Shown piece after piece: positions 55,083-64,000 of a DNA stretch of 64,000 nucleotides. The notes beneath the pieces were generated by a model. It saw only the letters and a program-made list of their open reading frames with translations, was not told where the DNA came from and searched no databases. The stretch's first letter is position 1. Every line of letters starts with the position of its first letter. The translations under genes and the position numbers were made by a program. The DNA lies in the IMG/VR virus record IMGVR_UViG_3300032236_001850, positions 52,392-116,391 of that record. One strand, given 5' to 3'. Origin of the DNA: a virus.

Positions 55083-58000
55083 GTGTCAAATCCATTAAAT
55101 CTTACAGGACAGTTTATAGCCGACACATACGGAAGATTATTACAGGTACAAGGTAATAATGTCTATGACGGCGAGGGTAACTATTTATATACAATTGGAG
55201 GAACTGGTGGAGGTACAGTTGGACCGCAAGGGCCTACTGGAGCAACAGGTTCACCAGGATCCAACGGAGCTACAGGTTCACAGGGAGCAACAGGAGCTAA
55301 CGGTTCGACTGGACCACAAGGAGCAACAGGTTCACAGGGAGCAACAGGAGCTAACGGTTCGACTGGACCACAAGGAGCAACTGGAACTAGCGGTGCTACG
55401 GGAGCTACGGGTAGAACAGGTGCTACGGGAGCTACAGGTTCAACGGGAGCTAATGGTGCTACGGGAGCTACAGGTTCACAAGGTGTTATGGGCTCAACTG
55501 GAGCAACGGGTATAACAGGTACAGACGGATCCAATAGTGGAAAATGGATATTATCAACATCATCAAGCCCATCACCAGGTACCTTCTTTACAAATTCCAC
55601 AAATACCGGTGACACCTCACAGATAATAATCAGCAATCTAGCGGACAATCTGACAAACTATTATGGCTGGAATCAAGCTGCTTCGGCTGCAACTGCATTG
55701 GGTAATCCCCTTTATTTGCAGATTTCCGAAGTTGGTAATGCTACAGTCAGCGGAATTTACCAAATAACAGCGGTGAATGATAATACAGGGTCATACTCTT
55801 ATGTTGTTTTATCCATATTATCGGCGGGAGGATTATTTACAATAGGAAAAGAATATACAATATCATGGGTATATTCGGGTAAGAATGGGGTGGATGGATT
55901 CCAAATAGTAAATATTGAAAACAATGAGGAATTAGTTCATCTTATAAATACTAGTCATCTTTTAAGTGGATGCTATTATAACATAAAAAGTGTGGATTTT
56001 AACTTGGATTACAGATTCGATTCAAAATCATACACAAACATTCTTTTGCTTGCATTAGCTAATAATAAAATAGCGGAGGATGGATATGGTATATTCTACA
56101 CACCCAAATATGATCAGTTCCCAATATTTTCATCCAATATTGCTTATAGTGTTGGAGATAGAGTCATATGGGGAGGCTACGTATGGACGTGCACGGTGTC
56201 AACATCACCAGTGACTGCACCGAGTCCATTTGAACTTAATCCAGATTATTGGACAACAGGATATTACAAGGACAATACAAATTTCTATAATGTTTCATTG
56301 GATTCCATAAAATATGACTATATAAACGATAGAATAATTTATAGAGAGGAAAAAAATACAAATATTGTTAGCACTAATAATGAAAATATATTATATTGGG
56401 AAAGCTTATTTGGAACATATAACTCTCCTATAAACGGCGACATAAAGTTCTACAATCCCATAAAATCATTCCAATGGGGTAACGTCTACGATGGCCAATA
56501 TGGTATAGGTAACCAGTACATTGAAAATTCATACAATGAAAATATAAATTTTAGTGGCGATTATCAAACTAATATAAAATTTACAAATCTATCATATCAA
56601 AGATTTTATAGTATATCGAATGATACTTCATCAATCTTTGTTGGTGGTGGATTTTCATCCTATACAAATCCAAGTTCATTGATTACAGAGGCTCACGGAT
56701 TAATCGAAATAACACCAACATATTACACTGATCAAATTTTTGATCAAGGATATGGATTTGATAATGGTTCGATGACCTCAGTAATACAGAAAGACCAAAA
56801 AATAATAATTGGCGGTGACTTTACAACTTACACTAACGGGACAACTTACACAGTTAATCGTATAATAAGATTGAATCAATGGGGTTCTATTGACACAACT
56901 TTCGCTACAGGAGGCGGTTTCAATAGTGCTGTTTTTGCTTTAGCTTTACAGGAAGATGGTAAAATTTTAGTTGGTGGAAGTTTTGATGCTTACGATGGAA
57001 GTTCTGCTAAATATATAGCCAGATTAAACCCCGATGGACAATTGGACAACTTTAATCTGGGGGAATTTGGATTTGATAACGATACCTATGTTAGCTGTTT
57101 AGCGGTACAACCAGATGGAAAGATTTTAGTTGGTGGAGGTTTCAATTCATACAACAGTAACACAGCAATAAAAATAGTAAGGTTAAATCCCGATGGAACT
57201 TACGATAACACATTTTTAACCGGTGATGGATTTAACGGTGATGTTAAATCAATAGTTATCCAGAAGGACGGAAAGATTTTAGTTGGGGGTCAATTTGACG
57301 CATTCAATGGTGACTCTGCAAATTACATAGCTAGGCTAAATCCTGACGGATCCAACGATGGCACCATAGGAACAACCGGATTTAATGGTGGTGTTAATTG
57401 TATAACTTTACAAAGGGATGGTAAAATTTTAGTTGGTGGTCAATTCAGTCAATATGATTCGAATACAATCAGTAACATAGTGAGACTAGAAAGTTCTGGA
57501 GCATATGATCCAACATTTGCTTATCTGGCGGAAAATCAGGGCGAAGTTAACGTGATAGTGGTGAATGATAACACCATAATCGCAGGAGGTAAGACTGAAA
57601 ATTTCAATCTAATAAAATTTGATTTGCTTGGGAATGATCTCTATTACTATCCAATAGATAATGGAGTTAGTACAATACAGATAGTACAAAAAACATACCA
57701 ATCAAATCTAACTTTCGATAACGGATCGCATCAGGACAGCGTAAGATTAAGATCAGGATCACAAGACACGATCAATCTAACAGATGGATCTTACCAGGAT
57801 ATGATTGGTCTTAATTTTTCTTATCAATCAAAATTAAATCTCAGAAATTCAAATCAAAATATTAAATTTCTAAACAGAGTTTATCAGAATGAGATTGAGC
57901 TAAAAAATTCCAACCAGATACTCAATTTAGCATTCGGAAGCTACCAAATTAATTTGGATTTATACAATTCCGAACAGCTTATTCCCGAACAAATTGAAAA

Positions 58001-60602
58001 CGTTATTCAGGAGAATATAAGCATAAAGAATTACAACTATGATAGGACAGTTCATCCAATAACTGGTTCGGAGTATAATCAATCATTCATGAATGATCTG
58101 GAGGTGAACAATTCAGCTCCTAAATTAATAGCTATCTCGAATAATAAATTATATGAACTTGAGGTTAGTTCGATTAGTGGAGGTACTGGTGCAACACCAA
58201 CAATTAATCAGGTATTAGGAGCAGGCGAATATGCAACGGATAAAAATATGGTGCTAAATACGTCGACAGATGCATTTAATACGTATCTTACACCAGGTCA
58301 GGTTGCAGTAAATAATGGTGTTGAGAGTATAAGAATGACTCCATCAGCCATCTCATTTTCAACACCATCCGGAGGCTCATCATTTTTAAAACCAAGTCTA
58401 ACACAACCATCTGCATTTTCTCCTACGTTTTACTTACCTGAAAAAGCAAGCACGTCAAACTATACGTTAGCTACCACTGCTGATTACAATCTACAAGCTG
58501 TAACAGCCAATGCCAACACAACAAATCTAGATATACAATTTCAGCCAGTTACCAATACAGGTGCAACTGGTACCAAATTTGTAACGATACAAAACACTGG
58601 TATTTTTCTATTGGGTACCAACCAGACAACTACAAATGTTTTCAACGATAGAATAGAATGGTCTCAATATGGAAATACCATTACTCTAGGAGCAACTACT
58701 GCAGCTGCTTCCAATAGTGCTAATTACATATTCCCAATAAAACCATTCTCAGGAACTCCCTATACATTAGCAACAACTGCTGATACCATTTCAGTATCTT
58801 CAGGTAACACTAACAATCTACAAATTTCCTCAATAGGGACAAACAGAGTATTTTATTCAAAAGGTCTAGTATCCTCAAATGGGTCAGTTACAGTGGGAAC
58901 TACAGGAACTACAGGAGGTACATCATGGGCATGGGATCTTAAGGTAAACGGTGTGACTGGTGCTACTGGCTCCAATGGAGCAACAGGAGCTACAGGATCT
59001 AACGGTTCTAATGGAGCAACGGGAGCAACTGGATCACAAGGTATCCAAGGTGTTACTGGAGCAACGGGAGCAACTGGATCACAAGGTATCCAAGGTGTTA
59101 CTGGAGCTACAGGATCTAATGGAGCAACAGGTTCTGCCGGAGCTACTGGAGCAACGGGATCACAAGGTATTCAAGGGGTTACTGGAGCTACAGGGGCTAC
59201 AGGAGCAAATTCAACAGTTCCTGGACCAACAGGAGCAACTGGTGCAACAGGATCACAAGGTATCCAAGGGGTTACTGGAGCAACTGGAAATAGCATCTCA
59301 GCAAGTTTCATGAGAGGATCTAGATCCGCCATGCAAACTCTGAATCTAACACCTAATAGTTTAGTTGCATTCACACAAATAGATCTTTCAACAGGTTCGG
59401 ATATTTCTTTGAACGCGTCAACCGGTCAGATAACACTAGCAGCTAATAGAGTTTATAGAATACTCGGACAAGTTCCAAATGGTATAGCAAGTGGTTCCAA
59501 TATAAGACCATCGTTCTCCTGGTATAATGAAACAGCAGGTACCTGGATAGGAAGCCAATCGGCAATCTATCAACCTTCAGACGCTGCGGGATATTGGTCA
59601 TCAGGAGGTCCATCTGATGCACTATTATCAACCAGCACATCAACTGTTATATCATATAGAATTCTTTCAGCAAGTGGTAGTATAACCGGTCTTGGAGCTA
59701 ATACAGATTTTGGTCTTACTGGTTCATATCCATGGTTTGATATACAAGTAATATCTGGAAATTCACCACTTCTAAATGGAGCTACAGGAGCAACCGGTGC
59801 AACGGGAGCCAGTATAACTGGACCAACTGGTGCAACGGGAGCCACTGGATCTGTTGGAGCAACAGGACCAACTGGTGCTACTTTCAATACAGTTCCTGCT
59901 ATCAACTGGGGTACTAACACTTTTACTAAATCTGGTTCAGGTAATGGTGATCAATTGCTTGATAATGGAACTAACGATACACCGGGAGTTCTTTTATATT
60001 ACGGAAATAACTCAAACTATGGTATTGATAGTTATAATGGTTCTTACAATGTTTTAAGCGGTCAGTTATTGAGATTTGTTACTAATCTAAATGAAGCTGG
60101 TGGTGCTATAAAAGCTGCATTCGATACATCGGGTAATTTAGCTCTTAGTGGATTTATAAATCCGAGCTCGTGGCGAGCTGGACAGACAATACAGACGAAA
60201 TTATTTAGTGCTAGCGATTTAGGATTTACAACAAACTATACCAACAGTACGAACACTTATACCTCCATAGTTACCGGTACTTATACCCCTCTGTCCTCAT
60301 CCTCGTACATTTTCTTTGAAGTTTATGCAATGTATGATGTTGGTGGTGCCGCTGCCGACTCATTCTTCTCCCAAATAACATGGAATGGTGGGGAAATTGG
60401 GGTTCAACGTCAAGTTTGGGCTAACGGTGCGGGTGGTGGTACACGTAGTGGTACATTATTTCCATTGGCTGGTAGAGTAACGAACTCCTCCACGACTGGT
60501 TATGGATGGGCAGTTAATACCAGAAGAGATTCTTCCGATGATGGTATTACTGTATATCCTAACGGTGGATTCTATGTGAAAATAACAGAAATCGCTAGAT
60601 AA
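55083..60602 (+). CDS. giant tail-fibre-like protein (1839 aa) with collagen-like G-X-Y repeats, delta-60-type beta-propeller repeats and short periodic repeats
   Basis: G-X-Y runs at aa ~40-155, ~1295-1410, ~1560-1600; ~8 repeats of [11 protein letters not shown]....I.RLNPDG..D..F (aa ~560-830); ~11-aa periodic xSxQxxIxLxN repeats (aa ~870-960). Confidence 0.7.
58956..59292 (+). repeat. tandem ~45-nt coding repeats ([15 protein letters not shown] units) in fibre 1
   Basis: repeated ggatcacaaggtatccaaggtgttactggagc(a/t)ac(g/a)gga units. Confidence 0.7.
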
Positions 60603-63600: not shown

Positions 63601-64000
63601 CAGGAGCTACAGGATCTAATGGTTCCAACGGAGCTACTGGTGCTACAGGAGCTACAGGATCTAATGGTTCCAACGGAGCTACTGGTGCTACTGGTGCTAC
63701 AGGAGCTACAGGATCTAATGGTTCCAACGGAGCTACTGGTGCTACAGGAGCTACAGGATCTAATGGTTCCAACGGAGCTACTGGTGCTACAGGAGCTACA
63801 GGATCTAATGGTTCCAACGGAGCAACGGGTGCTACAGGAGCTACGGGTTCAGCTGGTTCCAACGGAGCAACGGGTGCTACAGGGGCTACTGGAGCAGCAC
63901 CAACAATTTACAGATCATTCGGAGCAGTATTTGATGGGGGTGGTTCGATAATAACAACGGGAAATAACGGTACTGTTAATGTTGTTGATGTTTTGATGCC
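60660..64000 (+). CDS. second collagen-repeat tail-fibre-like protein, partial (runs off window); no ATG, candidate TTG start
   Basis: continuous frame-0 ORF from stop at 60648-60650 to window end, hand-indexed; N-terminal ...[17 protein letters not shown] parallels fibre 1 ...[14 protein letters not shown]; long G-X-Y blocks ([16 protein letters not shown] x5; [12 protein letters not shown] x5); first in-frame ATG only at ~61386. Confidence 0.55.
60900..61330 (+). repeat. tandem ~48-nt coding repeats ([16 protein letters not shown] units) in fibre 2
   Basis: five copies of ggagctaattcaac(a/c)gt(a/t)cc(a/t)ggaccagc(a/t)gg(a/t)gc(a/t)actgg. Confidence 0.7.
63565..63870 (+). repeat. tandem 45-nt coding repeats ([12 protein letters not shown] units x5) in fibre 2
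   Basis: five near-identical ggagctactggtgctacaggagctacaggatctaatggttccaac units. Confidence 0.75.

Follow-up and report, generated by a model that had tools for sequence, protein, structure and literature searches.

Two giant collagen-like fibre genes of a huge phage begin at conserved non-AUG codons

Two very long collagen-repeat genes lie one behind the other in the same reading frame of an uncultured virus, and the second has no ATG near its beginning. The question raised by this locus is how the second gene is expressed. The DNA analyzed here, referred to as the window, is a stretch of 64,000 nt from IMG/VR record IMGVR_UViG_3300032236_001850 (positions 52,392-116,391 of that record), and features are on its plus strand unless marked (-). 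The first gene, fibre 1, is an open reading frame (ORF) of 1839 amino acids (aa) at 55083-60602 and ends with the TAA codon at 60600-60602. The same frame is open again from 60651 to the end of the window, giving 1116 codons, or 1113 when counted from the TTG codon at 60660. No ATG occurs in this frame until 61383, which is 732 nt past its opening and within the collagen repeats. The initial annotation had given the same end for fibre 1, an open frame of more than 1100 codons, and a distance of about 730 nt to the ATG, and these values hold. It had counted three TAA codons in this frame after fibre 1; the stops are present, but there are four of them (60600, 60609, 60642, and 60648). It was also right that the list of ORFs omits the second gene but not about the cause, which is that the listing program drops ORFs running off the window; the missing ATG is not the reason. 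The second gene, fibre 2, is probably an ordinary gene, expressed separately from fibre 1, with TTG 60660 as its start and a promoter-like box of its own, a reading to which we assign a probability of about 0.82 from sequence comparison.

The conservation of the start region among related loci points to TTG 60660 as the initiation codon of fibre 2. The window was compared with seven loci (L002, L003, and L006 to L010) that were found with 38-48 N-terminal residues of the protein. In a metagenome scan with the 48-residue N-terminus, matches to the GTGGGATG pattern overwhelmed the result and no relatives emerged; an alignment without the glycine-rich tail then found them. L002 is on the same contig as L004, another locus discussed below, and the seven loci come from six independent assemblies besides that of the window. 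In the window, TTG 60660 (60660-60662) is the sole canonical start in the first 30 codons of the open frame. The homologous codon is TTG in all eight loci, an in-frame TAA is found four codons upstream of it in each, and no other canonical start (ATG, GTG, or TTG) lies between this TAA and the TTG in any of the eight. Directly after the TTG a codon-wise pattern of substitution begins. The changes are mostly synonymous or conservative, they fall mostly in third codon positions (GCA/GCT, CAG/CAA, TCT/TCA), and the protein identity from this point on is 73-89% across the seven other loci. The protein read from the TTG begins (M)AQFPQSPR. Residues 3-254 align with positions 5-245 of the PHROG 3420 profile, and therefore the N-terminus of fibre 2 is complete. 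In L004 a complete ORF of 1158 aa begins at the homologous TTG. A conserved near-cognate codon, an in-frame stop upstream, and protein conservation directly after the codon in eight of eight loci are the pattern of ordinary non-AUG initiation, and on this comparative evidence TTG 60660 is assigned as the initiator. Both the absence of an ATG start and the choice of TTG 60660 as the best non-ATG candidate, as put forward in the initial annotation, are thus upheld by every related locus compared.

A start farther downstream and an error in the sequence both fit these data poorly. Translation might begin at a TTG near 60759 or at ATG 61383, with the conserved 5' block serving as an untranslated leader, and in favor of this ATG is by far the commonest start codon in this genome. 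However, protein conservation extends over the 37 residues that follow TTG 60660 while third positions change synonymously, the alignment to PHROG 3420 begins at residue 3, and ATG 61383 lies within the G-X-Y repeats, so that its use would remove the conserved N-terminal module. A downstream start is very unlikely. Collagen repeats are hard to assemble, as seen in a run of N in L001 and a fibre 1 ORF that is broken within the repeats in L005, and the lack of an ATG could in principle reflect faulty sequencing or assembly or the loss of this codon from a pseudogene. Against this, the window and the loci from the six other assemblies have the same TTG, box, and upstream stop, the 1158-aa ORF of L004 is complete from that TTG, and an ATG at this position or 5' of it is absent from all homologues. 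Error or decay is even less probable than a downstream start. Both had been named in the initial annotation as conditions that would refute it, and neither holds for the loci compared. A short ATG ORF at 60623 (MRNDI*) was also considered and rejected; it is in another frame and 5' of the conserved box, and it is not conserved.

The gap between the two genes contains a conserved box that is probably a promoter element for fibre 2. The intergenic stretch with the four in-frame TAA codons is at 60600-60650. Within it the sequence GATATATAGA (60632-60641) is invariant in all eight loci, and nucleotide conservation begins abruptly at this box, the sequence upstream being unalignable among the eight. 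The box is separated from the TTG by a semi-conserved, A/T-rich spacer of 17-18 nt. In the window this spacer or leader is 18 nt long (60642-60659), has no Shine-Dalgarno (SD) sequence, and holds the last two in-frame TAA codons. The shorter form GATATATA occurs at ten sites in the window when both strands are counted, and eight of these are 13-22 nt before a gene start, measured from the end of the box to the start codon. The test counted sites 12-23 nt upstream of the same-strand start of an ORF of at least 60 aa; 279 control words of the same composition scored 74 of 1630 (4.5%). The eight GATATATA(G) sites are at 30024, 34249(-), 37396(-), 41584(-), 41779, 51891(-), 53992(-), and 60632, and the starts that they serve are ATG 30051, 34219(-), 37370(-), 41572(-), 41800, 51866(-), and 53968(-) and TTG 60660, respectively. 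Six of the eight head divergent transcription units, and because of this divergent location a promoter must exist in those six regions. The position of the box before gene starts, mostly at the heads of divergent units, therefore makes it promoter-like. The GATATATAGA box may represent a class of phage promoter with a short leader. The GATATATA(G) box is also seen in the related loci, for example on the minus strand of L003 near position 560.

The leader of fibre 2 is unstructured, and searches for other known signals were negative. The initiation region from -18 to +41 has a minimum free energy of -3.7 kcal/mol (z = +0.7), and it is essentially unstructured in four homologues as well. A scan of the intergenic region for sigma-70 promoter and terminator consensus sequences gave nothing above shuffled sequences, and no Rfam family was found at 60500-60800. 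The -7 element of the Bacteroidota sigma-A promoter has the consensus TAnnTTTG. The conserved element upstream of fibre 2 is GATATATAGA and not this sequence. The window does have TAcgaTTTG, with a gap of 3 nt, which overlaps the start codon; most homologues have TTACAAATTG and no TTTG, and a promoter of the host type was rejected at this site. The initial annotation had proposed looking for a promoter or a leader free of ribosome binding sites at 60603-60660, and both a promoter-like box and an A/T-rich leader that lacks SD sequences are found there. Its suggestion that some unconventional expression might be needed is not supported, as the conserved box and a normal SD-less leader suffice. 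In the proposed scheme, transcription would begin just 3' of the box, and the resulting leader would be short, unstructured, and A/T-rich. Initiation with formylmethionine takes place at TTG 60660, as the comparison of loci shows, and fibre 1 stops at its natural C-terminus at TAA 60600 and is a separate protein.

A second recurring motif, TTTGCAATATAAT, is found in the window at 2454, 3992, 13023, and 20723, 15-25 nt before ATG starts. With up to two mismatches allowed it has 12 matches, and 7.3 are expected. This motif may mark a different promoter class, perhaps of the host type.

The genes upstream of fibre 2 differ among the related loci, while the region from the box to the TTG is retained. 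In the window the gene 5' of fibre 2 is fibre 1. In L004 it is a short fibre gene of 482 aa, whose product has an N-terminus like that of fibre 1 and a different body. In L003, part of a 119-kb phage contig, the slot held by fibre 1 in the window is occupied by an IS607-like TnpA/TnpB pair. The pair is inserted directly 5' of the fibre 2 homologue at 4196-5933 and consists of a MerR-type serine recombinase (190 aa) and TnpB (390 aa). The block of box, spacer, and TTG is kept in the window, L004, and L003 despite these differing neighbors. This bears on the possibility that fibre 2 has no promoter and is made from the fibre 1 mRNA by coupling, or termination and reinitiation, at TTG 60660, with GATATATAGA acting in RNA processing or ribosome loading. 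Several features are compatible with coupling: the gap is just 57 nt, both genes are on the same strand, no terminator-like site was found in the scan of the intergenic region, and a fixed distance from box to start would suit a translational signal as well as a promoter. However, the block persists behind unrelated upstream genes (TnpB in L003 and the short fibre in L004), 57 nt with four in-frame stops is long for reinitiation, and the six boxes that head divergent units have no upstream cistron on their strand. Coupling is therefore unlikely as an explanation, and an independent fibre 2 gene with its own promoter accounts better for the persistence of the block.

The two fibres do not appear to be parts of one polyprotein. 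Both in the window and in L004 the two ORFs share a reading frame, and this could suggest that stop-codon readthrough or recoding at the TAA codons yields a fusion. A shared frame is a 1-in-3 event, and the upstream gene of L003, TnpB, is in a different frame. Four consecutive in-frame TAA codons separate the ORFs in the window and five stops do so in L004, the spacer lacks conservation of the coding type, and the upstream partner differs in L003 and L004. Readthrough is ruled out by these four or five in-frame stops together with a spacer that does not code and a partner that changes. In addition, the last 226 aa of fibre 1 match the C-terminus of another protein, P0080, at 51% identity, and both end in ITEIAR; the shared domain and ending show that TAA 60600 is the natural end of fibre 1. 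An alternative genetic code was rejected because the ORFs of the window tile it and close normally under code 11. We give the polyprotein practically no chance, and separate expression of fibre 2 from its own start is retained.

Several points weigh against an ordinary fibre 2 gene with its own promoter. TTG is a weak initiator that a ribosome would have to select without an SD sequence. Position -3 in the window is G and not the favored A, although A is present in several homologues including L002 and L003. The homologues are all metagenomic and several are closely related, so that eight of eight represents fewer than eight independent events. The genes behind GATATATA are of mixed function, including an exonuclease and a D5-like or HNH-like protein. 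The promoter role of the box and the expression of fibre 2 are predictions from position and conservation. The idea that weak starts throttle synthesis, discussed below, is a reasonable conjecture.

Fibre 1 also lacks an ATG start. Its GTG at 55083 comes directly after two stop codons, and the first in-frame ATG is 405 nt downstream. The GTG is invariant in the three genomes available for comparison (the window, L004, and L005), the pattern expected of ordinary non-AUG initiation. It lies within a very highly conserved junction at 55007-55096 that contains the last ~55 nt of the upstream gene, an A-rich spacer of 19 nt, the GTG, and the first fibre 1 codons. Three-way nucleotide identity in this junction is 93-100%, compared to 40-85% elsewhere. 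In more distant homologues of fibre 1 (L001 and LR756502.1) the protein starts MGNNLTGLTVSSTYGRLVQ and the corresponding codon is ATG. From this comparison, GTG 55083 is the true start of fibre 1 and a derived state retained in the clade. A hairpin (GGCAC-GUGUC) that would sequester the fibre 1 GUG was considered and rejected, as it is no better than shuffled sequences (z = -0.9); the invariance of the region precludes a covariation test.

The two fibre genes are exceptional in the window in having non-ATG starts. For most other apparent TTG starts an ATG follows 3-11 codons later, and the rest (14730, 25475(-), and 43225(-)) belong to doubtful ORFs. This leaves the two fibre genes as the only well-supported cases in 64 kb. 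Weak non-AUG starts most likely hold down the synthesis of giant structural proteins needed in low copy. A more specific proposal is a selected throttle that sets fibre stoichiometry or limits the demand of ORFs of 1200-1800 codons for Gly, Thr, and Ala tRNAs, combined with an undescribed promoter class made up of GATATATAGA and a leader of about 18 nt. We regard this proposal as possible but rather doubtful.

Both proteins are long chains of collagen-like repeats and other domains. Fibre 1, delimited by its ORF, its Pfam domains, and its conserved start, has an N-terminal module (aa 1-43) followed by G-X-Y repeats (aa 44-151), a DUF5122 beta-propeller, further G-X-Y repeats (aa 1290-1404 and 1580-1600), and the C-terminal domain that ends in ITEIAR. 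Four tandem repeats of ~150 nt at 56939-57500, detected by repeat finding, correspond to blades of the propeller (Pfam PF17164, E = 1.2e-57). Fibre 2 has at least 1113 aa (60660-64000) and runs off the window; judging from the L004 homologue, which is complete at 1158 aa, the part beyond the window amounts to about 90 residues. Its N-terminal module (aa 1-37; 60660-60770) is the part that is 73-89% identical in seven loci with differing downstream parts. It is followed at 60792-61916 by two G-X-Y blocks (aa 45-254 and 301-419) with a Trp-rich motif between them (aa 255-300), and then by a central non-collagen domain of 548 aa (61914-63557). The region at 63567-63998 encodes another G-X-Y block, the third (aa 970-1080), and the beginning (33 residues) of a C-terminal domain, and the L004 homologue continues into a C-terminal domain of 124 aa (PHROG 35197). 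Both fibres belong to the Pfam Collagen family PF01391, with scores of 105 bits for fibre 1 and 170 bits for fibre 2 (E = 9e-51) against a cut-off of 27.2 bits, and their G-X-Y runs reach 36 and 37 triplets. The repeats are rich in Thr, Ala, and Ser and poor in Pro, and a triple helix is predicted from sequence.

The two fibres are not paralogs over their N-termini. The initial annotation had described paralogous N-terminal blocks and, on that basis, tandem paralogous fibres. A profile-profile comparison of the two N-termini with hhalign gave a probability of 0.4% and one aligned column. With low-complexity filtering nothing is shared between fibre 1 and fibre 2, and unfiltered BLAST aligns only the collagen repeats. 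The N-termini are unrelated and the description as paralogs has to be dropped; the G-X-Y repeats alone are common to both proteins. A nine-residue interruption of the repeats, GANSTVPGP, is found once in fibre 1 (59205-59231) and five times in fibre 2 (60970-61290). Its presence in both genes suggests that repeats have been exchanged between the fibres despite their unrelated N-termini.

The fibres are nevertheless modular, in that short conserved N-termini are joined to variable bodies. The N-terminal 37 aa of fibre 2 are conserved in seven loci, and the remainder is without similarity among them after low-complexity filtering. The N-terminus of fibre 1 is likewise conserved ahead of different bodies in relatives. 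The central domain of fibre 2 and the C-terminal domain of fibre 1 recur in other combinations, for example in P0080 and P0001. A conserved N-terminal module with variable distal domains is characteristic of virion fibres, and the assignment of both proteins as virion fibres is well supported. The module of about 40 residues is presumably the piece that attaches to the virion, and it would be followed by collagen-like spacers and exchangeable distal domains. Modularity, which had been suggested for this locus in connection with host range, is therefore present in the sense that distal parts are swapped among relatives behind a conserved module, and not as tandem paralogy.

The central domain of fibre 2 has many metagenomic homologues and distant matches to known fibre proteins. 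There are 154 metagenomic homologues, many of them on contigs of 130-400 kb; a scan of IMG/VR with this domain found none. An exact 38-mer DNA search likewise gave no match. By tblastn, 45% of the query aligns at 32% identity with a 'tail fiber protein' of Stenotrophomonas phage DLP_6 (E = 1e-6), and a protein of Flavobacterium phage 11b is a distant match as well. An AlphaFold 2 model of the domain is confident, with a predicted local distance difference test score of 84.7. The structural matches found with Foldseek are weak and include the tail fibre of cyanophage A-1(L) (E = 5e-4, template modelling (TM) score 0.12-0.16), a phi812 baseplate protein, and Mtd. A sub-domain of ~130 aa resembles the base of the phi29 head fibre gp8.5 and capsid decoration proteins (Foldseek probability 1.0, TM score ~0.5-0.6 on the target). 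This resemblance means that the fibres could be head rather than tail fibres, going by the modelled fold. Sequence searches of the PDB with three non-collagen segments found no relatives. Placement on the tail or the head, as well as receptor binding, is at most predicted, and a role as adhesins or determinants of host range is suggested by family annotations and weak fold matches.

The source of the window reads as a huge phage with expression signals resembling those of Bacteroidota. The window has 33-40% G+C and densely packed short ORFs, predominantly on the plus strand. No SD sequences were found anywhere in the 64 kb, and leaders are A/T-rich. From these expression signals the host is probably a member of the phylum Bacteroidota. 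Close relatives are found on three IMG/VR contigs, with lengths of 430, 119, and 92 kb. A megablast search of GenBank phages with 44000-64000 gave no match, and a scan of genome contigs revealed no prophage or host copy. The 237-aa gene directly 5' of fibre 1 (54350-55063) served as the anchor for a synteny search of relatives. Its product is 84% identical at the amino acid level to the L004 protein and 77% identical to the L005 protein, and it has no match in Pfam or PHROG. Elsewhere the window encodes an M42 glutamyl aminopeptidase (20749-21822), a NAPRTase-family protein (27256-28941), and a 641-aa SPFH/Band 7 protein (31047-32972). Very large phages typically carry auxiliary genes of this kind. 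LR756502.1, a 642-kb uncultured phage, encodes an SPFH protein with 63% identity to the one in the window. At 4271-4327 is a tRNA-like element of 57 nt, with a score of 34.2 bits for Rfam RF00005 (gathering score 29). The acceptor, D, and T arms are present and an anticodon arm is apparently missing; ARAGORN makes no call for the element.

The 430-kb IMG/VR contig UViG_3300034116_002156 is similar in organization. It has the same order of the 237-aa gene, a GTG-start fibre, and a TTG-start fibre, with the same N-terminal modules. It differs in that the fibre 1 slot holds a protein of 482 aa and the distal domains are swapped. The 642-kb LR756502.1 has a fibre 1-type N-terminus, but its fibre 1-type gene, like that of L001, has an ATG start in place of GTG.

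The fibres resemble collagen-like proteins already known from phages. Tail-fibre and minor-tail proteins of phages and prophages (PF01391; PHROGs 6320, 5073, and 1806) share the long G-X-Y repeats flanked by non-collagen N- and C-terminal domains. Such proteins have been described from prophages of E. coli O157:H7 (PMC3368898). The PHROG tail fibre and collagen-like minor tail families match the fibres with E values of 1e-31 to 1e-82, mainly through low-complexity repeats. In contrast to these proteins, the fibres of the window are much larger (1839 and ~1200 aa) and have several separate collagen blocks. They also differ in their distal parts, which are the DUF5122 beta-propeller in fibre 1 and the 548-aa domain without a solved relative by sequence in fibre 2.

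The promoter-like box and the start region of fibre 2 also have known counterparts. T4 late promoters consist of TATAAATA, an element of the -10 type, and have no -35 element. The fibre 2 box is similar in that a short A/T-rich element just 5' of the gene is the only conserved upstream feature. It differs from the T4 promoters in its sequence, GATATATAGA, and in serving replication-type genes besides a fibre gene; no search for a gp55-like factor was made. In Flavobacterium johnsoniae, initiation is independent of SD sequences, uses AUG starts with A at -3 and -6, and is favored by low structure (PMC6847099). Fibre 2 likewise has no SD sequence, an A-rich unstructured leader, and no competing AUG near its start. 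In contrast to F. johnsoniae, its start codon is UUG, position -3 is G in the window, and the host phylum is deduced from expression signals. Overall the fibres are collagen-like phage fibre genes of a kind that is already known, with ordinary non-AUG starts.

Giant fibre genes with non-ATG starts have consequences for the annotation of huge phages. None of the results calls for a new mechanism of expression. Gene callers that use only ATG truncate or miss these giant genes. P0001, the protein from L001, has been called from an internal ATG, and a run of N in the scaffold breaks the frame within its collagen block. Collagen-repeat regions are broken in public assemblies, with the run of N at ~9100-9200 in L001 and a frame break at 10737-11875 in L005. 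Fibre genes of this type are systematically mis-annotated. The analysis also yields, as modest by-products, a candidate promoter motif for the clade and the observation that weak start codons go with both giant fibre genes. Fibre genes and transcription units of this huge-phage clade can in practice be annotated by the conserved TTG and GTG starts and the GATATATAGA box. The combination of a conserved N-terminus with a swapped body marks likely host-range cassettes of uncultured phages larger than 400 kb.

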